A stretch of DNA of 64,000 nucleotides from an uncultured Pseudomonadota bacterium (GCA_903921785.1 CAIXRH010000045.1:4366-68365); one strand, 5' to 3'. Counted from the first letter of the stretch, positions 6,367 to 58,560 are shown. Notes: generated by a model from the sequence alone, not told the origin. A program made the numbers and translations.

Positions 6367-7276
6367 CGATGACGCGGATCCCGACCACCTCGCGCCCGAG
6401 CGGCGGCGCCGAGGGTCACGCCGCGCCGCCCCCGTCCATGTAGACGGCGAGTGGGTGGAGATCGTGGAGATGGTCGGCCGGCGCGTGCGGATCCGTCGTG
6501 ATGACGGCCGCGAGGAGATCCTCCCCACGCGCGGCGCCCATGTGGTCGTGGCGGACCGGGCCCGGCTGGTAGAAGGTGTCGTGGTCGAGACCGCGCCGCG
6601 CCGCACCACCCTGGAACGGACGGTGGAGACAGCCGGCACGCGCCTGGTGGTGAGCAACGCCGATCGGCTGGCGATCGTCACCGCGGCCATCGACCCGCCG
6701 TTCCGTCCCGGCCTCGTGGACCGGATGATCGTGGCCGCTCAGCATGGCGGGCTGGAGTGCATGCTGGTGCTCAACAAGTGCGACCAGGGCATGCCGGAGG
6801 AGGTGCTCGAGTGGATCGCCCGCTACGAGGCGCTGGGGCTGGAGATCGCGCTGGTTTCGGCGACCGAGGAGCGCGGGCTGGCGCCGCTCCGAGAGGCGCT
6901 CAAGGGGCGCACGACGGTGCTCCTCGGCCATAGCGGCGTCGGGAAAAGTACGCTCATCCGGGCGCTGGTGCCCGGTGCGGAGCCGCTCATCGGCGAGCTC
7001 GACGCGTGGGGGCGCGGCCGCCACACCACCACCGCCGCGCGCCTATGGGATCTACCGGATGGCGGACGGATCATCGACGTGCCCGGGATCCGCGAATTCG
7101 GGGTCGGGCACGTGCCCCGTGAGGAGCTCCGGCACCACTTCCCGGAGCTCCTTGGGCTGGAATGCCGGTACCGCGACTGCCTCCACCTCGGCGATGACGG
7201 ATGTGTCGCCGACGCGGCGGTGAGCTGGGTGGAGCGGCTGGCGAGTTACCGAAAACTGGTGGAAGAGTGCGTCTGA
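6353..7276 (+). CDS. rsgA: ribosome small-subunit-dependent GTPase A
   Basis: Shows the circularly permuted GTPase motif order of RsgA/YjeQ: LVLNKCD (G4), then GHSGVGKSTLIRAL (G1), DxPG (IIDVPGIREF), and a C-terminal zinc knuckle CRYRDCLHLGDDGC. Confidence 0.9.
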   Translation: MSTFDDDADPDHLAPERRRRGSRRAAPVHVDGEWVEIVEMVGRRVRIRRDDGREEILPTRGAHVVVADRARLVEGVVVETAPRRTTLERTVETAGTRLVVSNADRLAIVTAAIDPPFRPGLVDRMIVAAQHGGLECMLVLNKCDQGMPEEVLEWIARYEALGLEIALVSATEERGLAPLREALKGRTTVLLGHSGVGKSTLIRALVPGAEPLIGELDAWGRGRHTTTAARLWDLPDGGRIIDVPGIREFGVGHVPREELRHHFPELLGLECRYRDCLHLGDDGCVADAAVSWVERLASYRKLVEECV

Positions 7277-7289
7277 ACCTGGAGCAATC

Positions 7290-7526
7290 ATGAAAAAAGT
7301 CGAGATCACCTACTGCACGAGTTGAGGGTACCTCCCTCGGGCCATCCGGGCGATGGGCACCCTGAGGGAGGAGCTGGACGTTGAAGCGACGCTGATCCCC
7401 GGGCACGGCGGGATCTTCACGGTGGCCGTCGACGGGGCCGTGGTGGCCCGCAAGACCTGGGATGGCTTCCCCGACACCGAGGAGATCGTCCGGGCGGTGG
7501 CCAAGGCGCTCGGTCCCGGGTTCTGA
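7290..7526 (+). CDS. selW: SelW/Rdx-family selenoprotein (78 aa) with in-frame TGA = Sec at 7323-7325
   Basis: Hand translation: GGAG at 7281-7284, ATG at 7290, then MKKVEITYCTS-U-GYLPRAIRAMGTLREELDVEATLIPGHGGIFTVAVDGAVVARKTWDGFPDTEEIVRAVAKALGPGF, stop at 7524-7526. This is the Rdx-fold signature: a beta1 strand ending in CxxU, then xxxRA, and GxFEV/TVxVDG...FP..EEI. The track has no plus-strand ORF here because of the TGA. Confidence 0.8.
7334..7368 (+). promoter_or_regulatory. candidate bacterial SECIS hairpin
   Basis: CCCTCGGGCCATC (7334-7346) pairs imperfectly with GATGGGCACCCTGAGGG (7352-7368) around the loop CGGGC (7347-7351). The stem starts 9 nt after the UGA and the G-containing apical loop lies about 24-28 nt downstream. 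That is within the usual bacterial SECIS geometry. Confidence 0.5.
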
Positions 7527-7527
7527 T

Positions 7528-7844
7528 ACGGTCCGTCCCTGATGAGGATCGTTCCCACCCACCGGAGCGAGTCCGTGCAGCAAGCAACAGCGGGCTTCCC
7601 GGCGTCACGCCAAAACCTTGTGCTTGTTCGCCGACGGTTCAGGGTGAGGTGACGGGCCCGGGAGTGGGCCATGCGGGTGACGTCACGGGCGAACCGGCCG
7701 AGCGCAGCGACGGCCGGGCGCCCGTGGCGGCAGGACCCAGCGCCAACCCTCACGTCCGCCGAGGCTACCGTTGCACATCTCGCGATGCCGGGAACCCCGC
7801 CCCCCGGCGCAGCGTCCTCGCCGGACGAGCCGTGATCACGGCCG
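7528..7844 (+). repeat. repeat family A, copy 1 (full length, about 317 nt)
   Basis: 7564-7844 aligns to the reverse complement of 44401-44684, and 7528-7704 aligns to 58561-58746. It contains the palindrome GTGACGTCAC (7677-7686) and long-range complementary arms at 7590-7609 and 7781-7800. It is intergenic, between selW and folE2. Confidence 0.85.
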
Positions 7845-7860
7845 ATGGGAATCAGTCACG

Positions 7861-7877
7861 AACATCTTGACGATGTT
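7861..7877. promoter_or_regulatory. inverted repeat AACATC-N5-GATGTT upstream of folE2 (candidate operator)
   Basis: A perfect 6-bp inverted repeat with a 5-bp spacer (TTGAC) lies in a locally AT-richer patch, flanked by direct GTCACG words. It ends 25 nt before the folE2 ATG. Confidence 0.25.
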
Positions 7878-7901
7878 GTCACGGGTCCTTAGCTCCCCGG
7901 C

Positions 7902-9032
7902 ATGAACTCCGTCCCGCTCCGCGAGCTGCTCCCCGACCACGCCAGCCACGCGGACGATCGGGGCGTGCCCATCGACCGCGTGGGGATCAAGGGGCTTCGC
8001 TGGCCGATCACGGTGTGGGACCGGGCGAACCGGGCGCAGCCCGTCGTGGCCGACATCACGGCAACGGTGGGCCTGCCGGCGGACGTGAAGGGCACCCACA
8101 TGTCGCGCTTCGTCGAGGTGCTCAACGGCGTTCGCGGCGAGCTCTCGCTGCATACGCTCCCCGATCTGTTGGCGCAGCTCCAGCGCCGCCTCGGCGCCCG
8201 AGACGTGCAGCTCGACGTACGTTTTCCCTACTTCATGGAGCGCTTCGCCCCGGTGAGCAAGGTCGCGTCGCTGATGGAGTACGGCGCCGTGTTCCACGCC
8301 ACGCTCTCGGGGACGGTGTTCGATTTTGTCCTCGAGGTTCGTGTTCCGGTCACGACGCTTTGCCCCTGTTCCAAGGCGGTGAGCGAACGCGGTGCCCACA
8401 ACCAGCGGTCCTGGGTCGACGTGTGGGTGCGGGGCCACGAGTTCTTGTGGATCGAGGACGTGGTGGAGGCCGTGGAGGCCTGCGCCAGCTCGCCGCTCTA
8501 CGCGCTGCTCAAGCGGGAGGACGAGAAGTACGTCACGGAGCATGCCTACGACCACCCACGTTTCGTAGAGGACCTCATCCGGGAGGTCACCCGCGCCCTG
8601 GAGCCCAAGGCGAAGTGGCTTCGGGTAAATGTGGAGAACCTGGAGAGCATCCACAACCACAGCGCCTGGGCCGAGCTGGAGTGGAATACGGAAACATCCG
8701 TAGTATTGGGGCAGGGGGGCGGAGCCCCCCCGCAACGCCCCCCCGAGGCCGCCGCGGCGCCGTCCGGGCTCGGGCCCTGGCTCCAGGCGAAGCGTCAGGC
8801 CTTCCACTGGTCACAGGCGCAGCTCGCGGCGCGGCTGGGGATGAGCGCCTCGCTCCTGAGCAAGATCGAGAGTGGGGAGCGCCACCTGAGCCCCGAGAAG
8901 TTCGCCGTCGTGGCAGACGTACTAGGTGAGTCTCCGGAGCGTGTATCACTTCGCGCGGGGGTCGTTCCGGCCGAGCTGCTCGCCCGCGTGCAGGCGGACC
9001 CAGAGGGGTTCTTGCGGTGGGCGGCGGGCTGA
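7902..9032 (+). CDS. folE2: GTP cyclohydrolase FolE2 (GCYH-IB) fused to a C-terminal XRE-type helix-turn-helix domain
   Basis: The first 265 aa or so carry FolE2/MptA blocks (VPIDRVGIKGLRWPI, KGTHMSRFVE, VPVTTLCPCSKAVSERGAHNQRS, YALLKREDEKYVTEHAYDHPRFVEDL). A Gly/Pro/Ala linker follows. The last 85 aa or so read as an HTH_3 domain (WSQAQLAARLGMSASLLSKIESGERHLSPEKFAVVADVLG). Confidence 0.85.
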   Translation: MNSVPLRELLPDHASHADDRGVPIDRVGIKGLRWPITVWDRANRAQPVVADITATVGLPADVKGTHMSRFVEVLNGVRGELSLHTLPDLLAQLQRRLGARDVQLDVRFPYFMERFAPVSKVASLMEYGAVFHATLSGTVFDFVLEVRVPVTTLCPCSKAVSERGAHNQRSWVDVWVRGHEFLWIEDVVEAVEACASSPLYALLKREDEKYVTEHAYDHPRFVEDLIREVTRALEPKAKWLRVNVENLESIHNHSAWAELEWNTETSVVLGQGGGAPPQRPPEAAAAPSGLGPWLQAKRQAFHWSQAQLAARLGMSASLLSKIESGERHLSPEKFAVVADVLGESPERVSLRAGVVPAELLARVQADPEGFLRWAAG

Positions 9033-9034
9033 GA

Positions 9035-11842
9035 TCACCCCTCGTCGAGGCGGAGGGCCGAGCCGTCGAGGCGCACGCCGAATCGGGCGGCCGCGTCGCT
9101 GAGGATCTCCTCCGGAGACACTCGGATCTCACTGAGGTCCCAGGCCTCGGCGCGTTGGTCTGAACCAAACACCAGCACTCGGTCCCCCGCGGGCGCAATA
9201 TCCGACACCCGGCCGTGCTCGAATTCCCGACGGAGCAGCTCCTTTCCGTGGTCATCGAGGACGGAGGAGTCGATCCGCGAAGCGACAAACCACCGGTCGG
9301 GGGTGAGCCACTCGATCCACTGTCGCCGCTCCGTGGGCGGCGCGACCTGCACTCCATCGATCCACGGCGCGCCGGCCGCGTCGATCCACGCGTGATGGCG
9401 GCCGTCCGCGCTCTCGGTACACCAGGCCACGTCGGGCGGGGCGTCCAGCGGCTCCGAGGAGCCATCCGGGTGCAGGCGCACCCATCCGCCCGACCCCCCG
9501 GGGACGAGCCATCCGCTGGCCCCCCGCGTCAGCCGCCCGTCCGTTCCCGGTCCTCCCACGTGTACCTGCCCCGCGCGAGTGAGGGCCGCCTGCTCGTGCA
9601 TGCCGCTGAGCAGGACCTCGCGCCGCTCCCGGTCCGCGAGCATGCCTCGCACGAGCGGTGCGTCGATCGGCGGGAGTGATCTTCCCTCCTTGGTAAAGGG
9701 CAGAACAACGCTGTCGGTGAGGGACCAGGCCTGGTCGTCGGCCCAGGCCAGCGCGCGCACGGGCCCTGAGGGACGCGCCCACCGCAGCCGCCGGTCCCAG
9801 CCCCAGCGGGAGACGTTGCCGTCTGCACCCACGATCCACGTTTCCTCCGCGGCCGCGGCGATCGCGGTCACGGTCCGGGGCCCGGGCACCGCTCCGAGGC
9901 GGGCCGGCGCGGCTTCGTATCGGAGTACCGCGCCGGGCGTCGTGACCTCGAAGCCGGTGCCGGCGGGACGCACGGCCGCGTCCCAGCCCGCCGTCCGGGG
10001 GAGGCGCAGGACCTCGTCGCCGAGGGCGTCCCACGCGCGGACCGTTCCGTCGGAGACTCGCCCGAAGAACGCGGCGCCGTCCGCAGCGCTCCGCATCCGG
10101 CCGCCGACCGGGACGTCGGAGGCTCCGGTCAGCTTGGCGGTGCAGGTCGCCGGATCGAGCACCTCCAGCGTCCCGTTGAAGGTGACCGCGAGGAGACGAT
10201 CGCCCGAGCCGCTGAACTCGGCGCTCGCCAGTCCCCGGCGTTCTTGACAGGACATCCCGGGCGAGTCCGCGTCTGTCCACACCTCTCCGCTGGCGGTGGC
10301 GAGGCACACGAGGGGTCCCGCCCACCCGACCGCCTTGATCAACGAGGCGTATTCGCGTTCACTCCGAACGCCGTGCTCAATGCGGACGAGGTGCCGGCCT
10401 TCGCTCCACGCGAAGCGCTCCGGGTCCGCGGGGTCCGGCCACACGTCCGTCGCTGCGGTGGCCGGGTAGGTCGCCACCACCTCTCCCGTGAGGACGTCTA
10501 CGCTCCGCACCTCCCGGGCCGAGGCGAGCAGCAGCCGCCCGGGCGCCTCCTGCGCCGCGACGATGGGCGCCGCCAGCGGGATGCGCCACCGACCGCCCCG
10601 CTCGGCGACCTCCCCGGCTCGGACACAGGCGTGCTCCGTGAGCAGGAGGCAGCCGCCGAGGGGGACGCGCTCGGCGAGCCGGTAGGGAAACGTGCCGCGG
10701 TGTCGGACCACGAAGCCGCGGGCGAGCGGTCGTTCGCCGCGGGAGAGCGCCGCGGCGGCGTAGACCAGAGCGCCGAGCCCGTCGCCATCGCGATCGGCCA
10801 CGGCCGCCTGTTGCTCCAGTGCCATCGCGAGCGCACGCTCGGCGACGTCGCGCTCGGCCCGCACCCGGAGAAAGCCGGTGACCGCCGAGAAGAGGGCGAG
10901 GACCAACCCGATCGCGAGGGCGGCCAGGGGCAGGCGATAGCGGCGTGCCAACAGCACAACCGCCTCCCCCGGCCGGTAGTGGTACGCGCTGACTGCGAGC
11001 CCCGTGCGCCACGCCTGCAGGTCGGCGACCATCGCGTCCGCCGTGGGGTACCGGTCTTCGCGGCGAAACGCCAACGCGCGGTCGGCGATGGCCGCGAGGG
11101 GCGGTGGCGCCTCCGGGGCGACGAGCCGGACCGGGGGGATGGGGTCGGTCGCCACTCTCCGGATCACCCCCCACGGATCGTCCCCCTCCGCCGGCGGATG
11201 CCCGGTGAGCACCTGGTGGAGGATCGCGCCGAGCGCCCATACGTCGCTACGTACGTCCAGCGGCTCCTCCCGGCATTGTTCGGGGCTCATGAAGCCGGGC
11301 GTCCCCGCGATCCCCGCCCGGGGATCCGTGAGGTGGAGCGCGATGCCCCAGTCCAGAAGCAGCGTCTCCCCCCGCGGCCCAAGCATGATGTTGGCCGGCT
11401 TCAGGTCCCGATGGAGCACCCCGCGGGCGTGGGCGTGGGCGACCGCGTGGACCACGTCGATGAGCCGGTCGAGGTGGGCGAGGCGCTCGGGAAGCGAGGC
11501 GCACCCGTCGAGCGCCTCCGCCAACGATTGCCCCTCCACGCGCTTCATCACGTAGAAGAGCGCCCCGTTCTCGCCTTCTCCCGCGTCGTGAACGGGGATG
11601 ATCGACGGGTGCTCCAGCCGGGCGGTGAGCCGCGCCTCCGCGAGGAACCGCGCCACCACCGCGGGGGAGGCCGCGACCGACACCTCCTTGATCGCCACCT
11701 CGCGGTCGAGGAGGCGGTCCCACGCCAGGAGCACCCGGCCCATCCCGCCGCGCCCGAGCTCCCCACGAACCACGTAGCGCGGCCCCACCTCGGGGGGCGC
11801 GGTGTCGGCGCTGGGGGTGTCCCAGGTGGTCCGGGCAGGCAC
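9035..11842 (-). CDS. receptor-like Ser/Thr protein kinase with one TM helix and a large repeat (beta-propeller-like) ectodomain
   Basis: Track ORF 9035..12220 trimmed to the GTG at 11842, because the upstream gene ends at 11863. Hanks motifs are present: GRGGMGRV, VAIKE, HRDLKPANIM, DWG, GTPGFMSPE. The TM segment is LPLAALAIGLVLALFSAVTGFL. About 570 aa of W/D/G-rich repeats follow. The start codon is uncertain. Confidence 0.85.
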   Translation of the reverse strand: MPARTTWDTPSADTAPPEVGPRYVVRGELGRGGMGRVLLAWDRLLDREVAIKEVSVAASPAVVARFLAEARLTARLEHPSIIPVHDAGEGENGALFYVMKRVEGQSLAEALDGCASLPERLAHLDRLIDVVHAVAHAHARGVLHRDLKPANIMLGPRGETLLLDWGIALHLTDPRAGIAGTPGFMSPEQCREEPLDVRSDVWALGAILHQVLTGHPPAEGDDPWGVIRRVATDPIPPVRLVAPEAPPPLAAIADRALAFRREDRYPTADAMVADLQAWRTGLAVSAYHYRPGEAVVLLARRYRLPLAALAIGLVLALFSAVTGFLRVRAERDVAERALAMALEQQAAVADRDGDGLGALVYAAAALSRGERPLARGFVVRHRGTFPYRLAERVPLGGCLLLTEHACVRAGEVAERGGRWRIPLAAPIVAAQEAPGRLLLASAREVRSVDVLTGEVVATYPATAATDVWPDPADPERFAWSEGRHLVRIEHGVRSEREYASLIKAVGWAGPLVCLATASGEVWTDADSPGMSCQERRGLASAEFSGSGDRLLAVTFNGTLEVLDPATCTAKLTGASDVPVGGRMRSAADGAAFFGRVSDGTVRAWDALGDEVLRLPRTAGWDAAVRPAGTGFEVTTPGAVLRYEAAPARLGAVPGPRTVTAIAAAAEETWIVGADGNVSRWGWDRRLRWARPSGPVRALAWADDQAWSLTDSVVLPFTKEGRSLPPIDAPLVRGMLADRERREVLLSGMHEQAALTRAGQVHVGGPGTDGRLTRGASGWLVPGGSGGWVRLHPDGSSEPLDAPPDVAWCTESADGRHHAWIDAAGAPWIDGVQVAPPTERRQWIEWLTPDRWFVASRIDSSVLDDHGKELLRREFEHGRVSDIAPAGDRVLVFGSDQRAEAWDLSEIRVSPEEILSDAAARFGVRLDGSALRLDEG

Positions 11843-11862
11843 CCCCTCTGGTATCTCCGCAC

Positions 11863-13158
11863 CTACGACGGGGCGAGCGTCCGCTCCCCGAGGGAGAACG
11901 CCGCGCCGTGCTGCCAGGCCCGGGCCACCCACCCCACATTCCCCATCGTGCGGTAGAGCCAGTCCGGCATGGTGGACGTGCCAAACTCGGCCGTGGCCTC
12001 GACCGGCACCGGCTCGCCGCGATCGAGCGCGGCCGCCGCGAGGTCGAGCCCGTGGACCACGTGGGTGGCGGGCCCGTTCGGTTCCGCGAGGCTCCGGCCC
12101 TCCAACGCCGGGCCGGCCCCGCACGCGAGGTGGCCGCCCCACGAAAGCCCACGCGCCTCGGCGGCGGCCGCGAGCACCTCCAGGGCGAGCACCGTGTGGC
12201 TGAGCTCGGGGAAGCCGCACTGCACGATGGGGAGCAGCACCGGCCGCCGCTCCCAGACCTCCGCGGCGCCGAGGCGGTCGAGCGCCGCGAGCACCAGGGC
12301 GGGCAGGCAGTCGACGTAGACCGGCGTGGCCAGGATGCAGAGGTCGACGGACTCCAGGAGCTCTTGGAGCTCCTGCACGTCAGCGCGGCCGAGCTTCACC
12401 AGCTCGGCGAGGTGCGCGGTGGCGGTGTCCCAGCCGAAGGCGGCGAGCCGCTCAAGCAACGCCTGCCCGATGGCCTCCGAGGTGCTCGTGCCGCGGGCCT
12501 TCGCGCTCCCCACCAGCAGCAGCGCGCGCCGCGGCCGAGCGCCCTCGAGGGCAAGGACGCCCACTCCCGGGGGGGGCGAGAAGGGTGGCAGGGTGGGGAA
12601 CGCCCGGAGGGTCGTGGCGCGCGCGGCCGCGATCGTGTCGGCCAGCTCGTCGGCCGTGGCGTCCGGCGCGACGAAGGCCACCCAGGGGGCCGGCTGGTGC
12701 AGGTTCAGCGCGTTGCGGGCCACGACACAGAGGAAGCGGGCGCGGTCGGCCTCGCTCACCTCCTCGTCCACGACCGCCACCACCCCGAGGCGGGGGTTCT
12801 GGTCGTACCGGGCCTTGTGGTGCGTCTCCCCGTCGACCGGCTCGAAGAACGGGTGGAGCAGCCCGAGGAACTTGTCCAGGGCCTGCTTGCTCGACGCATC
12901 CCAACAGCCGAACCGGGGTCGGAGCGCCCACACGACCTCCGACGACGCCACCGCGTCCTTGAGGACATCGTTGGTCGCGTCGCGGACCTTGCAGAGGCCC
13001 GGGTGCGCGATCCAGCACTCGAAGCAGCCCTGGCACGTGGCAAAACGCTCAGCTCGGAGGCGGTGGTGCACGCGAGGCCGACCTGTTCGGGACAACGCAG
13101 CGATCAGCGGCAGCGCGATCGGATCGGGGGAGAGCGCGTCCAGCAGCGTGACGTCCAT
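11863..13158 (-). CDS. iron-sulfur flavoprotein-like / flavodoxin-fold NAD(P)H-dependent reductase (two flavodoxin-like halves)
   Basis: C-terminal 431 aa of track ORF 11863..14607, from the ATG at 13158. It has the Isf-type cysteine motif CQGCFECWIAHPGLC (Cx2Cx2Cx7C). The second half has a flavodoxin-like LLLVGSAKARGTSTSE...ATPVYVDCLP. The upstream 480 aa of the ORF are Ser/Thr/Ala/Arg junk antisense to murJ. Confidence 0.7.
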   Translation of the reverse strand: MDVTLLDALSPDPIALPLIAALSRTGRPRVHHRLRAERFATCQGCFECWIAHPGLCKVRDATNDVLKDAVASSEVVWALRPRFGCWDASSKQALDKFLGLLHPFFEPVDGETHHKARYDQNPRLGVVAVVDEEVSEADRARFLCVVARNALNLHQPAPWVAFVAPDATADELADTIAAARATTLRAFPTLPPFSPPPGVGVLALEGARPRRALLLVGSAKARGTSTSEAIGQALLERLAAFGWDTATAHLAELVKLGRADVQELQELLESVDLCILATPVYVDCLPALVLAALDRLGAAEVWERRPVLLPIVQCGFPELSHTVLALEVLAAAAEARGLSWGGHLACGAGPALEGRSLAEPNGPATHVVHGLDLAAAALDRGEPVPVEATAEFGTSTMPDWLYRTMGNVGWVARAWQHGAAFSLGERTLAPS

Positions 13159-15402: not shown

Positions 15403-15435
15403 CTCGACGCCCAACCGAGACAGGGGGAAGAAGGC

Positions 15436-16242
15436 ATGCTCGCACCGGAGCTGTTTCGCCGCTTCAGCGATCTCGCCCACTCGCGGGCTGGGATCGCGCT
15501 GAAGGAAGGCAAGGAGACCCTCGTGGAGTCGAGGATCGCCAAACGGATCTCGGCGCTCGGCCTCGCCGATGCCGCGGCCTACGCGGACTACCTGGACAGC
15601 CACGACGGCGAGGAGATCGTCCAGTTCTTGGACGTGATCTCCACGAACTTCACCTCGTTCTTCCGCGAGCCGGATCACTTCGAGCGCCTGTCAGAAGAGG
15701 CGGCGCGGTGGCGGGCAGAGGGGCGTGAGCGAGTACGCGTGTGGTGCGCAGCCTCCTCCACGGGCGAGGAGCCCTACACCCTGGTCATGACCCTGCACGA
15801 GGTCCTCGGCGACAGCCTGGACTGGAAGCTGCTCGCCACGGACATCTCCACCCGGGTGCTCGACGCGGCGCGCCGCGGTCGCTTCGCCGAGGATCGCCTC
15901 CGCGGCCTCGATCCTGCGCTGCGCCAGCGCTACTTCACCGCGGCGCCGCAGGGCCCGGGGGAAACGCCCGAGTGGCAGTTCCGCTCCCCCCACCGGGAGC
16001 GCGCCTCCTTCGGCCGACTGAACCTCGCGAAGCCACCGTTCCCGCTGAGCGGCCCGCTGGACGCGATCTTCTGCCGCAACGTGATGATCTACTTCGATGC
16101 CGAGACCCGACAGGGCGTCGTCTCCGAAGCCGAACGCCTGCTCCGCCCCGGCGGGCTCCTGTTCATCGGCCATGCGGAGACGCTCAACGGGCTGCGCACC
16201 GGCCTTGTCCTTGAACGACCCTCCGTCTTCCGGAGGCGCTGA
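15436..16242 (+). CDS. cheR: chemotaxis protein methyltransferase CheR
   Basis: Contains TNFTSFFREPDHF, VWCAASSTGEEPYTLVM, ATDIS, and IFCRNVMIYFD of the SAM-dependent CheR fold. Confidence 0.9.
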   Translation: MLAPELFRRFSDLAHSRAGIALKEGKETLVESRIAKRISALGLADAAAYADYLDSHDGEEIVQFLDVISTNFTSFFREPDHFERLSEEAARWRAEGRERVRVWCAASSTGEEPYTLVMTLHEVLGDSLDWKLLATDISTRVLDAARRGRFAEDRLRGLDPALRQRYFTAAPQGPGETPEWQFRSPHRERASFGRLNLAKPPFPLSGPLDAIFCRNVMIYFDAETRQGVVSEAERLLRPGGLLFIGHAETLNGLRTGLVLERPSVFRRR

Positions 16243-16727
16243 TGGCTGAACGCCTCATCACGGTGGACATCGCCGACATCAAGGTGAGCAACGACCCCAC
16301 GGCCACGCTCATCACCTACGCCCTCGGCTCGTGCATCGCCGTGGCCTTGTACGAACCCACCCGCCACGTCGGGGGAATGATCCACTACATGCTTCCCCTC
16401 TCCACCGTGTCACCGGACAAAGCGAAGGAGTCCCCCGCGATGTTCGCCGACACCGGGATTCCCCTGCTCTTCGAGCGCATGTACGCGCTGGGCTGCAAAA
16501 AGTCCGACCTGGTGGTGAAAGTGATCGGTGGCGGCCAGATCTACGATGACAACAACACCTTCGAGATCGGCCAGCGCAACTACATGGTGCTCCGGAAGAT
16601 GTTCTGGAAGGTCGGCGTGCTCATCAGCGCCGAAGACGTGGGTGGGAAGAAGTCCCGGACGACCCGCCTGCACGTCGGGACCGGCCTGGTGACGGTGCGC
16701 TCGAGTGGGACGGAGGTGCCGCTATGA
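16242..16727 (+). CDS. cheD: chemoreceptor glutamine deamidase CheD
   Basis: CheD signature: TYALGSCIAVALYEP...GGMIHYMLP, IGQRNYMVLRKMF. Its start shares 1 nt with the cheR stop. Confidence 0.9.
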   Translation: MAERLITVDIADIKVSNDPTATLITYALGSCIAVALYEPTRHVGGMIHYMLPLSTVSPDKAKESPAMFADTGIPLLFERMYALGCKKSDLVVKVIGGGQIYDDNNTFEIGQRNYMVLRKMFWKVGVLISAEDVGGKKSRTTRLHVGTGLVTVRSSGTEVPL

Positions 16728-17590
16728 ACCCGAACCCGACCATCGGTGATCGGATCACCGCGCTACCTCCGCTCGACGCCTCGGTGGCGAAGCTCGCCCG
16801 GCTCGTCCAGGACCCCGACAGCAGCCTCGGCGCGTTCGAAAACGTGATCCGCCCCGACCCGGCGCTCACTGCCAACCTCCTGAAGCTCGCCAACTCCGCC
16901 CTGTATTCGAGCACCACCAAGGTGGTCTCCGTGCGCGACGCCATCGCTCGCGTCGGCACCCGTCGGGTGTGGGAGACGGCGACCGCCGGCGCGTTCGGGC
17001 GCACGCTTCCGAAGGTGCTCAGCGGCTACGACGTGGACGCTGTGGGCTTCTGGCGCCACTCGGTGGCGGTGGCGGTGTTCGCGGAGGCGATCGCCCGCGG
17101 CGCCCACCTCGCGGCCGCGCCGGCTGCGTTCACCGCCGGGCTGCTGCACGACATGGGCAAGCTGGTGATCGCCGACTTCCTCGCCCCGGAACGGGTGGAG
17201 CTGCTCGACCGCCTCGAACGCGGAAAGCTCTCCATGCTCGCGGCGGAGCAGGAGTTGCTCGGTACGGATCACGCGCAGGTCGGGGAGGCCGTGGCCACCC
17301 GATGGGGGCTCCCCGAGGAGCTGGTCGCGGCGGCCCGCTGGCATCACGAGCCCCTGATGGCTCCTGACGCCCGGCTCCAGGAGCTGGCCGGCGCGGTGCA
17401 CGTGGCCAACGGGTTGGCGCACGCCATGGGCTTCGGGTGCGACATCGGGGGGCTGCACCGGCGCACCGACCCGGCGATCCTGGCGCGGATGCAGCTTGAT
17501 CCCTCGAAGCTGGAACGGCTCGCCGCCAACAGCCTCACCGAGATCCTGGAATTGTCGCGCTCGCTGAAGGCGGCGGGAGGTCCATCGTGA
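16724..17590 (+). CDS. HDOD domain signalling protein
   Basis: HDOD pattern: LPPLDASVAKLARLVQDPDSS, DPALTANLLKLANSALY, AGLLHDMGKLVIA, HHEP. It overlaps the cheD stop in an ATGA arrangement. Confidence 0.85.
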   Translation: MNPNPTIGDRITALPPLDASVAKLARLVQDPDSSLGAFENVIRPDPALTANLLKLANSALYSSTTKVVSVRDAIARVGTRRVWETATAGAFGRTLPKVLSGYDVDAVGFWRHSVAVAVFAEAIARGAHLAAAPAAFTAGLLHDMGKLVIADFLAPERVELLDRLERGKLSMLAAEQELLGTDHAQVGEAVATRWGLPEELVAAARWHHEPLMAPDARLQELAGAVHVANGLAHAMGFGCDIGGLHRRTDPAILARMQLDPSKLERLAANSLTEILELSRSLKAAGGPS

Positions 17591-17967
17591 GCTACAGCAG
17601 CCTCATCGTCGATGACTCGGCGATCATCCGAAAAATGATCCGTCGCGCCTTGAGCCTCTCGGGGCTGGACCTCGGGGACATCCTGGAGGCCGGTGACGGG
17701 CGCCAGGCCCTCGCGGTGCTCGACGACCACTGGGTGGACGTGGTGCTCACCGACATCCACATGCCGGAGATGGACGGGATCGAGCTGGTGGAGCGCATGG
17801 CGCTCGACCCGCTGCTCTCGAAGATTCCAGTGCTGGTGGTGAGCACCGAGCGCAGCGAGGAGCGCATCGAGCGCCTGCGCCGCCTGGGGATCAAGGGGTA
17901 CCTCACCAAGCCCTTCACCCCCGAACAGATCCGCGATGCGGTGACCCGCGCCCTGGGAGGAGACTGA
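17587..17967 (+). CDS. cheY: chemotaxis response regulator CheY (single REC domain)
   Basis: The REC fold has SLIVDDS, a phospho-acceptor context VVLTDIHMPEMDG, VLVVST and GYLTKPF. Its GTG start overlaps the HDOD gene stop (GTGA). Confidence 0.9.
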   Translation: MSYSSLIVDDSAIIRKMIRRALSLSGLDLGDILEAGDGRQALAVLDDHWVDVVLTDIHMPEMDGIELVERMALDPLLSKIPVLVVSTERSEERIERLRRLGIKGYLTKPFTPEQIRDAVTRALGGD

Positions 17968-17968
17968 G

Positions 17969-19437
<1,469 letters not shown>

Positions 19438-19452
19438 GCCGCGCTGTACGAA

Positions 19453-19500
19453 GCCGCCCGACGAGGCGCCCCGAGGGCCTCGTCGGGCGGCGGCCGTTTT
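19453..19500 (+). terminator. Rho-independent-type terminator after cheB
   Basis: A perfect 15-bp stem GCCGCCCGACGAGGC (19453-19467) / GCCTCGTCGGGCGGC (19477-19491) has a 9-nt loop and is followed by GGCCGTTTT (T-run 19497-19500). It lies 16 nt after the cheB stop. Confidence 0.6.
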
Positions 19501-19518
19501 GGCTCCTCCCCGCGCGTC

Positions 19519-19609
19519 CGCGGCGCCCCCACCGGAGCGCTGAGGGTGGCTCGAAGCGCGAGCGCGCGCTTGCCGTCGGTCGCTCGAAGCGCCGGGGGTG
19601 GGGATGCGC
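19519..19609 (+). repeat. repeat family C, copy 1
   Basis: It shares CGCGGCGCCCNCCACCGGAGCGCTGA...CTCGAAGCGCGA...GAAGCGCCGRGGGTGGGGATGCGC with 32316-32408. It contains the hairpin AAGCGCG-AGCG-CGCGCTT. Confidence 0.6.
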
Positions 19610-19670
19610 ACTCGACGCGACATCGAAGGCGGCCGCCGATGGGAAGAGTGGCGACCATCGTGACCCGAAC

Positions 19671-19692
19671 GCCATCGGTCATTCGACCGATG
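19671..19692. promoter_or_regulatory. palindrome CCATCGGTCATTCGACCGATGG upstream of mcp
   Basis: A 10+10 inverted repeat about 158 nt upstream of the mcp ATG. It differs from the cheW-upstream site only at the central position and is followed by an unusually A-rich tract (aagaaacacaaaaag). Confidence 0.55.
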
Positions 19693-19829
19693 GGGATCGG
19701 CAAGAAACACAAAAAGCGCAATGTCGGCCCGGTTCCGCCGGGGGAAGCACACCACATTTCCTTCAGGTACCCCGCGTTGCGATCGATACCGGGTCCAGCC
19801 TCTGGCCTCACACAACGAAGGTGACGCAA

Positions 19830-21920
19830 ATGTCCTTCCTCGACCATTACCGACTCGCTCCGAAGCTCCTGTCCGTGCCGATCGTCCTGGTCGCGGCCAT
19901 GGCGGGCATGGGGTGGTACTCGCAGGCTCAGCTGCAAGCGACCGCGACGAGCACGGACGAGATGTACGCTCTGCAGCTCAAGCCCCTGGTGGACCTCGGC
20001 GAGATGGCCGAGTCCTTCCAGCGCGCTCGCGGCAACCTCATCGAGGCCGTGTACGTGAGCGACCCCGAGAAGGCGAAGGCGCTGCTCTCCAAGATCGCCG
20101 AGCGCGACGCCGAGGTGAAAGCCCGGGTCGAGTCCTACCAGAGCACGATCCGCACGGAGGAGGGCAAGAAGGCCTTCGCGGACCTCACCAGCGCGCTCGA
20201 CGAATTCACCGCCGCGCGCACCACGATGATGGCCGCGATCGATCGCGGCGATCAGGCCGCCGCCCTCACCATCTGGACCGAACAGTGTGAGCCCGCCCGG
20301 ACGAAGGTGCAGGACGCGATGGAGAAGGTCCAGAAGACCAAGATCGCCATCGCCGACGAGCGGGTGGCCGAGGCCGATTCCGCCGCCGTCACCGTGCGCG
20401 ACATCCTGCTCGGCAGCACCGTCCTCTCCGTGCTCTTCGGCCTCGGCCTGGGCATCACCGTCTCGCGAAACCTCGCCTCCCGCGCGGAGGCCCTCTCCGG
20501 GATGGCCAAGCGCGTCGCGCTCGGCGAGATCGTGACGGTGAACGTGGAAGGCGCGGACGAGCTCGCCGAGGTGAGCCGGGCGTTCGCCAGCGTGGTGCAG
20601 GCCCAGGCGACCCTCGCCGCCGCCGCCACCCGCGTCGCCGCTGGCGACCCGACCGTGGAGGTGAAGCCCCGCGGACCGGACGACGCCCTGAGCCACGCCT
20701 TCGTGAAGCTCATCGACACCACGCGCAACCTCACCACCGACTTGCAGCAGCTCGTGGCCGCCGCCCAGCGCGGCGCGCTCTCCGAGCGCGGGGACGCCGC
20801 CCGGTTCCAAGGGAGCTACGCCTCGATCGTCAAGGGCATCAACCAGATGCTCGACGCCATCGTGGCGCCGATCTCCGAAGCCGCCCAGGTGCTCGACCGG
20901 GTGGCCGCGCGTGACATGACCGCGCGGGTGCACGGCAGCTACGCCGGCGAGTACGATCGCATCAAGACGAGCCTGAACAGCGCGGTGGGGACGCTCGAAG
21001 AGAGCCTGCAGCAGGTGGCCCGGGGCGCCGAGCAGGTCTCCGCGGCGGCCAACCAGATCGCGTCGAGCGCGCAGGCCGTGGCCCAGGGCGCCTCGGAGCA
21101 GGCCAGCGCGCTGGAGGAGACCTCGGCCAGCCTCGAGACGATGTCCAGCGTGACCAGCCAGAACGCCCAGAACGCCAGCCAGGCCGATGGGCTCGCCCGC
21201 ACGGCGAAGGTGGCCTCCGACCAGGGTATCGAGGCGATGGCCGGGATGAACCAGGCGATGGAGCGCATCCGGATGTCCGCCGAGCGGACCGCCGCGATCA
21301 TCCGCGACATCAACGACATCGCCTTCCAGACGAACCTCCTCGCCCTGAACGCGGCGGTGGAAGCGGCCCGGGCGGGCGACGCGGGACGGGGCTTCGCGGT
21401 GGTCGCGGAGGAGGTCCGGAACCTCGCGATGCGCTCCAAGGAGGCCGCGAAGAAGACCGAGACGCTGATCCAGGAGTCGGTGGACCTCGCTCGGCAGGGC
21501 GAGGGCATGTCGCAGCAGGTGAACACCAACCTCGAAGAGATCGTGACGTCGGTGAGCAAGGTCAGCGCGATCGTCACCGAGATCGCCACGGCCAGCGCCG
21601 GACAGGCCCGGGGCATCCAGGAGGTGAACCGCGCGGTCGGGGAGATGGAGAAGGTCACCCAGCAGAACGCGGCGAACGCCGAAGAAGCGGCGAGCGCGGT
21701 CGAGGAGCTGTCGGGCCAGACCCGCGAGCTCACCGGCATGGTCAGCCGCTTCGAGCTCAGCGGCGAAGGCCGCCCCGTGGTCCGTGCTCCCGCGAAGCCG
21801 ATTCGCGCCCCGAGCCCCGCGCAGGCCGCGCCCATCCACAAGCGGGCCCCGCCGCCGCCCAAGCCCTCCGCAGAGTCCGTGTTCCCCCTCGACGACGAGC
21901 CCGCGTTCCGGGACTTCTAA
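19830..21920 (+). CDS. methyl-accepting chemotaxis protein (4-helix-bundle sensor, HAMP, MA domain)
   Basis: The ATG at 19830 lies within track ORF 18399..21920. It has an N-terminal TM, a helical periplasmic domain, a second TM ([20 protein letters not shown]) and the highly conserved signalling hairpin [37 protein letters not shown]. Confidence 0.9.
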
Positions 21921-21932
21921 GAGGTACCGCCC

Positions 21933-24293
21933 ATGTCCCCCTCTGAAGAAACCGCTGGTGACCTGCTCCTCGATGAGGCGGCAGCCACCGTGGTGATGGC
22001 CGACCCGAGTGACCTCGGGGGCGTGTCCGGTGTTTCCGCGCTCCTCACGGAGGCGGCGCAGAAGCTCCGCGAGGAGGGGGACGGGGAAGGCGCGCGCCAG
22101 GCCGACGCCCTCTCGGGCTGGTTGGCCGCGGCGCTCAGCAGCGGGGATGACGGCGGGGAGGTGCTCAACCGCCTCTCGGCCGGGATCACCGAGGTGCAGC
22201 GCTGGCGAGCCGGTCCGCGGGAGCTCCCGGCGGTCACGCCGGAAGCGAGCGGGGGTTCGACGGCGACGTCGTCGCCCTCGGCCGACGCGCCCCCCGAGTC
22301 GGCCCCGGCAGGCGGCAAGGCCTTCGACGCCGAGACCGTGGTCCTCATCGGAGAGTTCCTCGGCGAAGCCTCGGAAGGACTGGCCACGGCCGATGAGATC
22401 CTGCTCACCGTGGAGCAGGACGGGCAGGAGCCCGAGAAGGTCAACGCGTTGTTCCGGGTGTTCCACACGATCAAGGGGGTGTCGGGGTTCCTCGGCCTCC
22501 CCGACGTGACCACGTTGGCGCACACCACCGAAAACCTCATGAACCAGGTGCGCGAGGGGAAAGCACGCCTGGAAGGCCCGAACCTCGAGGCGATGTTCGC
22601 CGCCACCGGGGAGATGCGGAAGTACCTGGATGAGGTGCGCCGCGCCGTGGAGTCGGACTCGCCGGTGGGGAGGGTTCCGTCCGCGGACGCCGTGCTGGCC
22701 GAGCTCCGGGCCTGCATCGCCGCGGCATCGGACGGCGAAGCCGCGCCGGCGAAGGCGGCCCCCAAGGCGGTTCCCGCCGAGGAGGCCGAGCTCTTCGTGG
22801 ACGCGCCCGCCGTGGTCGAGGCCGCGCCGGTCGTCCCGCTGGCACCTTCGGCCGTGGACGTGCCCACCCCGAGCCTGGCGGTTCCCCCGCGAGCGGCGAC
22901 GCCGGTGACGACGGCACCCGTGCCCGTCGCGGCACCACCCGCGGCGATCGCGGCGCCGGAGCCCAAGGCAGCCCCCGCCCCCAAGCCTGCGCAGGGGGTC
23001 AACGAGTCCGCGGCGGCGGCCCGCGCACCGGCGGCCGCGCCCGCGCAAGCAGCCCCAGCCACTCCGACCAGCGGCGGCCCCGCCCGCCTACGGGAAACCC
23101 TGAAGATCGACCTCGAGCGGGTGGACTCGCTCATGGAGCTCATCGGGGAGCTGATCATCGTCGAGTCGATGGTGGTCTTCGCTCCCGAGATCCGCGAGAT
23201 CCCCTCCCTGCAGGTGCGAAAGCACCTCACCCAGCTCTCCAAGATCAGCCGCGACCTCCAGGACGTGGCGATGCGGATGCGCATGGTGCCGTTGCGCGGC
23301 GTCTTCCAGAAGATGCAGCGGCTCGTCCGTGAGCTCTCCCACAAGACCGGCAAGCGGGTAAGCCTCGCGATCTCCGGCGAAGGCACCGAGATGGACCGCT
23401 CCATGGTGGAGCGCATCGAAGACCCGCTGGTGCACATGCTCCGCAACGCGGTGGACCACGGCATCGAATCGGTGGAAGACCGCCTCCGCTCCGGAAAACC
23501 GGCCGAGGCGACGATCCGGCTCTGCGCCTACCACGAAGGCGGAAGCGTGGTGATCGAGGTCGGTGACGACGGCCGCGGCCTCAACCGCGAGGCCATCCTC
23601 CGCCGCGCGGTCGAACGCGGGCTCATCCGCGACGGCGAAGCCCGCGGCGACTCCGAGGTCTACGCGCTCATCTTCGCGCCGGGCTTCTCCACCGCCGCGG
23701 CGGTGACCGAGATCTCGGGCCGAGGCGTCGGCATGGACGTGGTGAAGCGCACGGTCGAGGACCTCCGCGGCCGGGTGATCATCCAGTCCACGCCGGGCAC
23801 GGGGAGCACGTTCCGGCTGGTGCTGCCGCTGACGCTGGCGATCATCGACGGCATGCTCGTGGCGGTCGGCAACGAACGCTACATCGTGCCCAGCCTCTCG
23901 ATCATCGAGTCGCTGCAGCCGCGGGAGGGGATGATCTCCACCTACCGCAACTCGGACGAGCTCATCAACGTACGCGGCGAGCTCCTCCCGCTGTTCCGCC
24001 TCGGAAAGATCTTCGACCTCCCGGCCGCGATCGAGGACCCCTGCCACGCCCTGGTGATGGTCGTGGAGAGCATGGGCCGGAAGGTCGGTTTGTTGGTCGA
24101 CGACGTCGTCTCCCAGCAGCAGGTGGTGATCAAGCCCGTCGGCACGGGTGTAGGCCAGCAGGACTCGTTCTCCGGCGCGGCGATCCTCTCCGACGGAAAG
24201 GTCGGGCTGATCCTGAACATCGACCGGATCTGCAACGCCGTGGGCGTACGCGCCCAACGCGCCGGATGGGGGAGCGGCGAGATGCGCGTGTAG
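21933..24293 (+). CDS. cheA: chemotaxis histidine kinase CheA
   Basis: The Hpt motif is FRVFHTIKGVSGFLG. It also has a long Ala/Pro linker, a dimerisation region, HATPase_c blocks (HMLRNAVDHGIE, DDGRGL, GRGVGMDVV, GTGSTF) and a C-terminal CheW-like domain. Confidence 0.9.
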   Translation: MSPSEETAGDLLLDEAAATVVMADPSDLGGVSGVSALLTEAAQKLREEGDGEGARQADALSGWLAAALSSGDDGGEVLNRLSAGITEVQRWRAGPRELPAVTPEASGGSTATSSPSADAPPESAPAGGKAFDAETVVLIGEFLGEASEGLATADEILLTVEQDGQEPEKVNALFRVFHTIKGVSGFLGLPDVTTLAHTTENLMNQVREGKARLEGPNLEAMFAATGEMRKYLDEVRRAVESDSPVGRVPSADAVLAELRACIAAASDGEAAPAKAAPKAVPAEEAELFVDAPAVVEAAPVVPLAPSAVDVPTPSLAVPPRAATPVTTAPVPVAAPPAAIAAPEPKAAPAPKPAQGVNESAAAARAPAAAPAQAAPATPTSGGPARLRETLKIDLERVDSLMELIGELIIVESMVVFAPEIREIPSLQVRKHLTQLSKISRDLQDVAMRMRMVPLRGVFQKMQRLVRELSHKTGKRVSLAISGEGTEMDRSMVERIEDPLVHMLRNAVDHGIESVEDRLRSGKPAEATIRLCAYHEGGSVVIEVGDDGRGLNREAILRRAVERGLIRDGEARGDSEVYALIFAPGFSTAAAVTEISGRGVGMDVVKRTVEDLRGRVIIQSTPGTGSTFRLVLPLTLAIIDGMLVAVGNERYIVPSLSIIESLQPREGMISTYRNSDELINVRGELLPLFRLGKIFDLPAAIEDPCHALVMVVESMGRKVGLLVDDVVSQQQVVIKPVGTGVGQQDSFSGAAILSDGKVGLILNIDRICNAVGVRAQRAGWGSGEMRV

Positions 24294-41650: not shown

Positions 41651-41681
41651 TGGTCCGTGATTCCGTGCTTAGCAATGCGGG

Positions 41682-43283
41682 ATGCACGAGGCACACACCC
41701 GGCGGACGTACACCATCCTGGCCGTGATCGGGCAGGGGGGCTGCGGTCGGGTGTACCGCGCGAACATGGACGGCGCGGACGGCTTCCGGAAGGAAGTGGC
41801 GGTCAAGCTGATGCGCGAGGACACGATGGACGGGGACGCGTTGATGCGCTTTCGCGACGAAGCCCGCATCCTCGGGCTCGTCCGCGACCGGGCGATCGTG
41901 AGCGCGGACCCGCCGACCCGCCTCAACGGTCGGCTGGCGATCGTGATGGAGTACGTGGAAGGCGCCTCCGCCGCCACCTTGTTGAAGTCCCAGGCGTTCC
42001 CGCCGACGGTCGCCCTGGAGCTGATCCAGGAGGTGGCCCGGGTGCTCGACAAGGTGGTGAAACACCCCGGCCCCGACGGTCACCCCCTCAACCTGCTTCA
42101 TCGAGACCTAAAACCAGCCAACCTCCAGATCACGCCCGGCGGCGAGCTGAAGGTGCTCGACTTCGGGATCGCCCGGGCCACCTTCGACGCGCGCGAGGCG
42201 CTCACGACGGCGAACGTGGCCGGGACCATCGGCTACATGGCGCCGGAGCGGCTTTCGGGCGTCGAGGCGCCGGCCGGCGACATCTACTCCCTTGGCGTGG
42301 TGCTGCGGGTGCTGGTCACGCGCGACAAGGTGGTCACCCACGGCGTATTTCGGGAGCGCGGGCCCCCCGTTGAGCGTACGGCCGCCGTCGAGGCGGTCCT
42401 GGCCCTGGCGGCCGAGATGTCCCACGTGGATCCCGCCTCGCGGCCGACGGCGCGTCAGGTCGAGGACCGCTGCCAGGAGCTCCGCGTCCGGTTCGCCGGG
42501 ATCACGCTGCGAACGTGGGCGGAGGCCCACGCGCCGGCGTCCTCCACCCTCGAGCCAGACGACCTCGTCGGGGCGACGCTCTCCGAGACCATCGCCACCT
42601 CGAGCAAGATCGCGCCCGGCGCGGCGCCTCCGCCGCATCGTGGGGCGGGCGGGACGTGGCGCACGTTCTTCCTGCTCGCCGCGTCCGCAGCGCTGGTCAC
42701 CGCCGCGACGGCGGCCGCCGTCGTGATGGTCGTCCCCCTGGGGTCCGCCCCCGCGGCAGCGCCCACGGGGACGGTGCCACTCCCGAACCACCCGCCTGGG
42801 GCGGAGACCGTCCCGCGGATCGAACCTCCACCCGCACCGGCGCCGGCGCCGCCCGTAGCCCCGGCCGCGGCGGCACCCGCCCCGATCGAGCCGCGCAGGG
42901 CCAAGGCAATCCCGGCTGGGCCGCCCGCGGAGCAGCCGGTGCGGATCCCGGTCATCCCCCCGGTCGCGGCCGCGGTCCCGGTCACCGCGGCGGTGGAGCC
43001 GCCGTCGGTGCCGGTCGCGGAAGCGCCGAAGGTCCCCGCGGCGGCCGGACCGCAGTGGAAGGTCACGTTCGCCTCGGTGCCGGGCGGCGCGGAGGTGTTC
43101 GTCGATGGCGTCCGGCTCGGCACCGCGCCGGTGCTGAACCACGCTTTCCCGGCTGGATCCTTCGAAGTGAGGATGCGGTACCCCGACGGCCAGAGCATCA
43201 TCCGCACCATTGAAACCGGCGATCATTCACCCCGACGCTACGTCTGGGATCAACTCGGGGGCGGCACGTGGAACTCGTTCTGA
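41682..43283 (+). CDS. Ser/Thr protein kinase with TM segment, Pro/Ala-rich linker and C-terminal PEGA domain
   Basis: Hanks motifs are present: GQGGCGRVY, VAVKL, HRDLKPANL, DFG, GTIGYMAPE. The TM segment is FFLLAASAALVTAATAAAVVMVV. The PEGA-like end reads FASVPGGAEVFVDGVRLGTAPV. Confidence 0.85.
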   Translation: MHEAHTRRTYTILAVIGQGGCGRVYRANMDGADGFRKEVAVKLMREDTMDGDALMRFRDEARILGLVRDRAIVSADPPTRLNGRLAIVMEYVEGASAATLLKSQAFPPTVALELIQEVARVLDKVVKHPGPDGHPLNLLHRDLKPANLQITPGGELKVLDFGIARATFDAREALTTANVAGTIGYMAPERLSGVEAPAGDIYSLGVVLRVLVTRDKVVTHGVFRERGPPVERTAAVEAVLALAAEMSHVDPASRPTARQVEDRCQELRVRFAGITLRTWAEAHAPASSTLEPDDLVGATLSETIATSSKIAPGAAPPPHRGAGGTWRTFFLLAASAALVTAATAAAVVMVVPLGSAPAAAPTGTVPLPNHPPGAETVPRIEPPPAPAPAPPVAPAAAAPAPIEPRRAKAIPAGPPAEQPVRIPVIPPVAAAVPVTAAVEPPSVPVAEAPKVPAAAGPQWKVTFASVPGGAEVFVDGVRLGTAPVLNHAFPAGSFEVRMRYPDGQSIIRTIETGDHSPRRYVWDQLGGGTWNSF

Positions 43284-44374: not shown

Positions 44375-44400
44375 CCGGTCCGGGCGGAGGGGCCATACCG

Positions 44401-44684
44401 ACCGGCCGTGATCACCGCTCGCCCGGCGAGGACGCGGCGCCGGGGGAGCGGGATTCCCGGCGTCGCGAGTTGCGCCACTGTTGCCTCGGCGAGCATGAGG
44501 GTTGGCGCTGGGTCCTGCCGCCACGAGCGCCCGGCCCTCGCTGCGCTCGGCCGGTTCGCCCGTGACGTCACACGCATGGCCCACTTCCGGGCCCGTCGCC
44601 TCACCCTGAACCGTCGGCGAACAACGGAAAGGTTTTCACGCGACGCCGGGAAGCCCGCTGTTGCTGGCTGCACGGGCTCGCTCC
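44401..44684 (-). repeat. repeat family A, copy 2 (inverted, long form)
   Basis: The reverse complement aligns with 7564-7844 along its whole length, including the GTGACGTCAC palindrome (44563-44572 region) and both 20-nt complementary arms. Confidence 0.85.
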
Positions 44685-44700
44685 GCGTCGCCGCTCGGGC

Positions 44701-51095: not shown

Positions 51096-51096
51096 G

Positions 51097-51867: not shown

Positions 51868-51966
51868 GGGTCGCAGGTAGCGCGGCGGCCGGGCCGGGGC
51901 GAGGGCGGGCGTCGGGCCGGGCGACCGCGGGTAGCGACGCACACGGTTCGCAGCTACAGTCGCCCT

Positions 51967-58534: not shown

Positions 58535-58560
58535 GGCGTGAAGCAGGCTTAGCCGGTGAA

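Follow-up and report, generated by a model that had tools for sequence, protein, structure and literature searches.

SelW-like proteins with a CxxU motif have been recognized as bacterial selenoproteins since 2005; they constitute the top selenoprotein family in the Sargasso Sea data, with 48 genes, and the SelW family is suspected to have a redox role linked to glutathione or thiols (PMC1088965). Surveys of bacterial genomes list SelW-like selenoproteins (PMC1794560), NCBI provides family models for them (TIGR02174 and NF041051), and annotation reportedly tends to shorten or miss SelW genes (PMC4607533). Bacterial SECIS elements are described as stem-loops lying right behind the UGA, with a conserved G in their small apical loop (PMC1088965), and a 5/6-bp apical hairpin is common among bacterial SECIS elements (PMC4607533); fossil SECIS elements have also been documented (PMC1794560). 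The solved bacterial Rdx proteins, such as 3dex, are described as adopting thioredoxin-like folds and carrying a conserved CXXC/CXXU motif (PMC3527542).

Here we analyzed a locus of this kind in a 64-kb stretch of DNA, referred to below as the window. Positions 7290–7526 very probably encode a 78-residue SelW-like Rdx selenoprotein in which the UGA at codon 12 would be decoded as selenocysteine (Sec). The reading frame comprises 77 sense codons plus this UGA and stops at the TGA at 7524–7526. Translation yielded MKKVEITYCTS, then the internal TGA at 7323–7325, then GYLPRA...GPGF over 66 open codons up to the terminal TGA. This is how the original prediction had read the frame, and the GGAG that it placed 5 nt before the ATG is likewise present. 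The same prediction held that ORF callers miss the gene, which proved correct for the 78-aa product, absent from public collections, but not for its C-terminal part: the 57-aa fragment beginning at Met-22 (P0001) is present there, on at least 16 contigs. The gene is a real but ordinary member of the SelW/Rdx family, and it was shortened by the callers because its candidate Sec codon, TGA, looks like a stop. The features of the locus are collected in Table 1.

Table 1. Features of the selW-like locus, in window coordinates.
Feature	Position	Strand	Basis or remark
rsgA, ribosome small-subunit GTPase, 307 aa	6353..7276	+	Pfam RsgA_GTPase; ordinary TGA stop
SD-like GGAG	7281..7284	+	5 nt 5' of the ATG at 7290; read from sequence
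SelW-like/Rdx selenoprotein CDS (probable), 78 residues	7290..7526	+	translation, Pfam/NCBIfam, PDB matches, full-length conservation in 35 homologs
Redox motif C9-T-S-U12 (TGC ACG AGT TGA)	7314..7325	+	aligned with CxxC of Rdx proteins; candidate Sec codon 7323-7325
Putative SECIS hairpin inside the CDS	7331..7371	+	MFE fold, covariation, RNAalifold
57-aa ORF from Met-22 (P0001)	7353..7526	+	public protein collections; without beta1 and the CxxU motif

Membership of the SelW/Rdx family, as originally proposed, was supported by profile scans of the product, in which C stood in for U. The 78-aa product scored 53.3 bits on Pfam Rdx (PF10262; cut-off 22.6), with residues 3–71 aligned to positions 1–73 of the 74-position profile, and it passed the NCBIfam model TIGR02174 (CXXU_selWTH) with 41.8 bits against a cut-off of 34.2. 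The top-scoring NCBIfam model was NF041051 (SelTWH_Campy), with 64.5 bits over profile positions 1–69 of 70; this score lies below the curated equivalog cut-off of 88, and the window protein is therefore placed in subfamily TIGR02174, outside the Campylobacter equivalog. The fragment starting at Met-22 scored 26.3 bits on Pfam Rdx, over the C-terminal half, which is just above the cut-off.

A phmmer search of PDB sequences returned 3dex (E = 6e-10), 2fa8, 2oka, 2ojl, 2obk, 2p0g, and mouse SelW 2npb (E = 2.6e-4). The best of these alignments to solved Rdx structures spans residues 3–76 and, at the level of sequence alignment, supports a predicted thioredoxin-like fold. The second Cys of the CTQC motif in 3dex, 2fa8, and 2oka falls on the window TGA, and C9-T-S-U12 matches this CTQC residue for residue, as it does the CKPC, CNPC, and CTQC motifs of Cys-type homologs.

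Homologs were drawn from a 5.8-billion-protein collection, species-representative genomes, and metagenomes, with genome and metagenome scans adding 36 loci. In the protein collection the window gene is present only as the 57-aa P0001, and all close relatives are 44–62 aa long. In relatives with 70–78% identity, the DNA 5' of the short calls shows the same layout as the window, each relative having its own ATG and upstream stop, as in the frames MNDVEITYCMS-TGA-GYLPRA and MADITITYCLS-TGA-NYLPRA. The nearest species-representative records are metagenome-assembled genomes (MAGs) labeled Alphaproteobacteria (73%) and Archangium (55–64%). An in-frame TGA occupies the last position of the motif in 26 distinct sequences, namely the window and 25 others, originating from Archangium/Myxococcota MAGs, a Candidatus Eisenbacteria MAG, a Desulfobacter MAG, two MAGs labeled Alphaproteobacteria, and metagenomic contigs; the 25 others also retain the N-terminal ITYCxxU segment. 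At the same column, nine homologs (Xanthobacter, Rhizobiales, Methylocystis, Nitratireductor, and Methylophaga) have a Cys codon, within the motifs CNPC, CKPC, or CTQC. The expectation that Cys-containing homologs would align at the TGA was thus borne out by the solved proteins, by these nine genomic homologs, and by full-length database representatives, which read ITYCKPCGY...RA.

A single base separates a Cys codon from TGA and the source is metagenomic, which are the grounds for suspecting that TGC or TGT was misread or misassembled as TGA. The window's exact sequence, TGA included, nevertheless occurs in four contigs (L001–L004) that come from different samples and were assembled independently, and the TGA stands at the same column in the 25 other distinct homologs. 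A sequencing error is therefore excluded for practical purposes, its probability being negligible.

The segment ahead of the TGA bears on a further alternative, in which translation genuinely stops at the TGA at 7323 and the product is either the 57-aa protein from Met-22 or a remnant of a decaying CxxC Rdx pseudogene. This alternative accords with the behavior of callers, which in several public sources yield exactly the 57-aa ORF; with the score of that ORF on Pfam Rdx, still above the cut-off; and with the use of TGA as an ordinary stop here, where it ends both rsgA (7274–7276) and the selW-like gene itself. The homologs argue against it. An ATG 11 codons 5' of the TGA (10 in L030) is common to all 23 Sec-type homologs examined, and 19 of these 23 have an SD-like purine motif at the same place. 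Codons 2–11 partly differ synonymously, as with the Ser codon ahead of Sec, which is AGT in the window but TCC in L014, and the 11 pre-TGA codons are conserved as protein. Conservation ends sharply upstream: over the 30 nt 5' of the ATG, nucleotide identity to the window is 0.13–0.33, which is chance level, in all relatives except the closest one (L033, 88% identical), where it is 0.86. An ATG at codon 22, by contrast, is found only in the window and in L023 (2 of 23), and in most homologs the frame contains no ATG beyond the TGA.

Since Met-22 is not conserved, the 57-aa database ORF is an annotation artefact; its product would also be devoid of residues 3–21, the N-terminal part of Rdx that includes the catalytic motif. 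Moreover, the TGA is kept in the 26 distinct sequences, across several phyla, without other disruption. It had been set out beforehand that conservation confined to the part after Met-22, with the first 11 codons left unconserved, would speak against a selenoprotein; the homologs display the opposite pattern. Protein conservation on both sides of the in-frame UGA, together with the alignment of Cys to it, is one mark of a bacterial selenoprotein gene. We accordingly consider a true stop at 7323 very improbable and retain the selenoprotein reading.

The shortened call extends beyond the window. An exhaustive phmmer search with the 57-aa fragment as query found 72 relatives among 1.84 billion cluster representatives (P0013–P0084). 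Forty-seven of them are N-terminally shortened, being at most 67 aa long or starting inside helix alpha1 as P0016 does, and the shortened calls start just 3' of the CxxU motif. Genes of this clade are therefore as a rule mis-called in the way seen in the window, and its Sec-type members are systematically mis-annotated in public protein collections.

Downstream of the TGA, the minimum-free-energy (MFE) fold gave a 16-bp hairpin consisting of a lower stem (7331–7341/7361–7371), a 4-nt bulge (7357–7360), an upper stem CCAUC/GAUGG (7342–7346/7352–7356), and an apical loop CGGGC (7347–7351) whose invariant G is position 7348. The ATG of Met-22 falls within the 3' arm of the upper stem. The original prediction had described a 13-bp hairpin at 7334–7368; the hairpin is real and its loop is CGGGC as proposed, but its size was underestimated, the 13 bp being the inner part of the larger structure. 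Judged from its sequence, the putative element matches the published description of a bacterial SECIS. Its folding energy is −31.9 kcal/mol (z = −2.17 versus shuffles). As a stability control, the 49 nt following all 1112 TGA triplets on both strands of the window, which is 72% GC, were folded: 23 of the 1112 segments fold as well or better, placing the hairpin in the top 2%. Given this rank in a GC-rich window, stability by itself was rejected as decisive proof. Rfam returned no match for the whole window at the gathering threshold, nor for 7250–7950 at E ≤ 1, a result that is uninformative on SECIS elements.

Covariation was assessed on 23 distinct Sec-type segments, each starting one codon ahead of the TGA and extending to +60, which aligned without gaps. 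RNAalifold, unprompted, returned a single consensus element with a 5-bp stem (columns 23–27/33–37) and a 5-nt loop, and four of the five pairs of this stem show compensatory double changes. When the stem is widened to 7 bp, 87% of cells are paired and five pairs have double-sided changes. The covariation score was 0.360, a value reached by none of 500 shuffles, with slid controls at or below 0.178. The core 5-bp stem is paired in 112 of 115 cells (97%) among Sec-type sequences versus 26 of 45 (58%) at the same columns of Cys-type sequences, the Sec-type cell counts being inflated by the many close kin (Archangium) in the set. Nine arm combinations occur, including CUGCC/GGCAG, CCAUC/GAUGG, CCACC/GGUGG, CCGCC/GGCGG, and CGGUC/GGCCG. 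The loops among Sec-type sequences are CGUGC, CGGGC, GGUCU, and AGUCU, and their second base is G in 23 of 23. GGUCU is found in a subset (L024, L030, and L042–L044), and its likeness to the fdhF loop is a possible lead. The lower stem is specific to the window's lineage, and its register shifts in other clades.

The upper stem overlaps codons of helix alpha1, which in the window are Ile-19 (AUC) and Met-22 (AUG). These two residues change from I19/M22 in the window to T19/V22 in L033 (ACC, GUG) and to A19/A22 in Archangium, while the RNA pairs change from AUC/GAU to ACC/GGU to GCC/GGC: residues 19 and 22 of the protein changed together, with the base pairs of the RNA preserved. Between the window and L033, the compensatory change from CCAUC/GAUGG to CCACC/GGUGG was made through paired non-synonymous substitutions, an indirect sign that selection continues to act on the putative SECIS within this lineage.

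Part of the pairing could nevertheless stem from protein-coding constraint, as Ala runs (GCN GCC ... GCG GCN) are intrinsically palindromic. An Ala-codon palindrome was rejected as the full explanation of the stem: the window's lineage uses Ile/Met or Thr/Val codons at these positions, and in Cys-type genes whose helices are comparably rich in Ala, pairing reaches only the 58% of cells given above.

Some Cys-type homologs carry a stem of their own. In the Xanthobacter group (L015, L016, and L018; Rhizobiales/Xanthobacter), a perfect 5-bp stem is found at the SECIS position, 19–33 nt after the TGC (L015 3053–3067), with the sequence CGGCC GAAGC GGCCG, or CAGCC...GGCUG with a compensatory synonymous change. 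In more distant Cys forms the stem is lost. The Xanthobacter-group stem could be a fossil SECIS left after a Sec-to-Cys conversion, in keeping with the documented fossil elements (PMC1794560), or a by-product of self-complementary Ala codons.

To place the gene in its genomic context, the Sec machinery was searched for. ARAGORN detected no tRNA of any kind, and so no tRNA-Sec, in the 64-kb window, and likewise no tRNA of any kind and no tRNA-Sec in 39 related loci (about 170 kb). SelA, SelB, and SelD were not found among about 55 window ORFs in Pfam scans, and no selA, selB, or selD was present in the about 170 kb of related loci. A screen of the window for a second coding frame interrupted by TGA found none; the screen is crude, with thresholds that miss even the selW-like gene on account of its short pre-TGA part. 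It gave four TGA-crossing hits, none with redox-motif context, and all four look like gene ends or antisense shadows. A literature search combining Myxococcota with selenocysteine and selenoprotein found nothing. On the selenoprotein reading, selA, selB, selC, and selD would lie elsewhere in the genome, as the original prediction implied.

These searches bear on a third alternative, according to which the UGA is read through with an amino acid other than Sec (near-cognate Cys or Trp), the Sec machinery has been lost, and the hairpin is a fossil. Such a reading fits the 64-kb window, in which the machinery was not found, and the SECIS-like stems that persist in some Cys-type homologs, which indicate that a stem can outlast Sec use, as fossil SECIS elements do (PMC1794560). 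It is harder to reconcile with the recent compensatory change that separates the window from L033, which points to ongoing selection on the RNA, and a lineage without Sec would be expected to fix TGA to TGC or TGT, as the alphaproteobacterial members did. We regard non-Sec read-through as quite improbable.

Under the preferred reading, that of a selenoprotein gene, expression would proceed as follows. Translation would begin at the ATG at 7290 behind the GGAG, probably on the rsgA transcript. At the UGA, the hairpin would recruit SelB-GTP-Sec-tRNA(Sec), with the 5-bp upper stem and the 5-nt apical loop with its invariant G as its key parts. Sec would then be inserted in place of termination, and translation would run on to 7526. 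The predicted product would have a C9-x-x-U12 center at the CxxC position of solved Rdx proteins, and it would most likely act as a thiol-dependent oxidoreductase cycling via an intramolecular selenenylsulfide.

The genes around the locus were compared across lineages. In the window, rsgA ends 13 nt 5' of the selW-like ATG, no promoter-like or terminator-like site was found between the two genes, and they are probably co-transcribed; a folE2-HTH gene lies downstream. In Archangium-type loci, a TauE/SafE permease gene precedes the selW-like gene and an esterase gene follows it; in the L005/L008 lineage, DUF4350 precedes it and methyltransferase, epimerase, and VKOR genes follow. No neighbor is common across the lineages compared, and the adjacency to rsgA is not conserved elsewhere. 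An assignment of function from conserved gene neighborhood failed, as the neighbors differ between lineages.

Two of these neighborhoods have features of their own. In 14 Archangium-type loci (within L010–L032), the selW-like gene directly follows a same-strand TauE/SafE (sulfite exporter/TSUP) permease gene that ends about 12 nt before the selW-like ATG (for example, L026 2213–2989). The L005/L009 lineage has a VKOR-domain gene some 2 kb downstream. These neighbors may hint at a connection with sulfur or selenium anions or with disulfides; neither is shared by the window.

Directly 3' of the selW-like gene lies one copy of a repeated intergenic element of about 190–290 nt, present in three copies with 85–94% identity at 7563–7852 (+), 44395–44685 (−), and 58557–58745 (+); the element also occurs downstream of the gene in L033. 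It holds a hairpin (7681–7729) of −39.3 kcal/mol over 49 nt, the most stable of the 1112 segments folded. The element matches no Rfam family at E ≤ 1 and does not fit the terminator consensus; possible identities are a MITE/REP-like element and a small RNA.

Other parts of the window were also annotated. At 7902–9032 (+), a FolE2 GTP cyclohydrolase domain (PF02649, 278 bits) is joined to a C-terminal XRE-type HTH_3 domain, an unusual enzyme-regulator fusion. A complete chemosensory cluster occupies 15403–24293 (+) and encodes CheR, CheD, an HDOD protein, a response regulator, a CheX-like protein, CheB, an MCP (4HB_MCP/HAMP), and a CheA-CheW fusion. Two Hanks-type Ser/Thr kinases are encoded at 9035–12220 (−) and, with a PEGA domain, at 41673–43283. 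This cluster and these kinases together give the gene content a myxobacterial look, despite the Alphaproteobacteria label of the nearest MAG records. At 49062–52761 (−), a CbbQ/NorQ-type AAA+ ATPase (AAA_5 + CbbQ_C) adjoins a VWA-containing CobT_C-like protein; the two genes are a putative chaperone pair of the MoxR/NorQ-NorD-like type. The window also contains genes for MurJ, transporters, sulfatases, a P450, and PanC.

The findings on this clade can be joined in one broader reading, which we offer tentatively and with less than even confidence: the short (73–90 aa) clade would form an Rdx subfamily in which Sec predominates, belonging to high-GC bacteria of soil and freshwater (Myxococcota-like, Eisenbacteria) and distinguished by three properties. 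First, the SECIS stem may be written in the codons of helix alpha1, with residues 19 and 22 co-varying as I/M, T/V, and A/A. Second, the stems of alphaproteobacterial Cys-type members may be fossils marking recent Sec-to-Cys conversions. Third, roughly two-thirds of the clade's database entries may be shortened mis-calls. If this reading is true, Sec use is systematically under-counted in these largely aerobic lineages.

For the window gene itself, the practical consequence is an annotation fix: public collections hold the 57-aa fragment without the catalytic motif, and most relatives share the error. The full 78-aa selenoprotein would mark the organism as a probable Sec user and could serve to trace Sec use among uncultured bacteria of high GC content. 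The 23 covarying SECIS sequences could in turn sharpen bacterial SECIS models.

Comparison with described systems places the locus close to several of them. The E. coli fdhF SECIS, whose minimal upper stem-loop is bound by SelB, shares with the window hairpin a stem of 5–6 bp, a small loop bearing a G, and a fixed short distance from the UGA. Its sequence differs, the window loop being CGGGC; in addition, the window's lower stem is lineage-specific and SelB binding here is putative. Mammalian SelW (2npb) and its relatives SelT, SelH, SelV, and MIEN1 resemble the window protein in belonging to the Rdx fold family and in the CxxU motif. They differ in using a 3'-UTR SECIS with SBP2/eEFSec, whereas the window SECIS would lie within the ORF and be of the bacterial SelB type. 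The Campylobacter model NF041051 describes proteins to which the window protein is related without being a member.

The solved Cys-type Rdx proteins, namely SAV_2001 (3dex), Atu0228 (2fa8), and those of P. aeruginosa (2oka), P. fluorescens (2obk), and V. cholerae (2p0g), can be aligned with residues 3–76 of the window protein at E = 6e-10 to 1e-3. They share the N-terminus (I/V)xYCxxC(x)(Y/W)LxRA and, in the second half, GGxFxV...GFP. In contrast to the window protein, they have Cys rather than Sec at the second redox position of the motif, are about 25 residues longer, and need no SECIS.

The closest counterparts are the bacterial SelW-like selenoproteins. The window gene shares with them the whole-length domain, the N-terminal CxxU, the small size, and a bacterial SECIS, here putative, that follows the UGA and has a G in its loop; in both, Cys-type homologs coexist and pipelines habitually shorten or omit the genes. 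No qualitative difference separates the two. The window clade lies at the short end of the family (73–90 aa versus about 100–108 aa for solved bacterial Cys forms), carries the motif C-T/G/M/L/V-S/A/Q/P-U, and comes from high-GC uncultured bacteria. The window gene adds a mis-annotated member to a long-known and abundant family and leaves what is known of that family unchanged.
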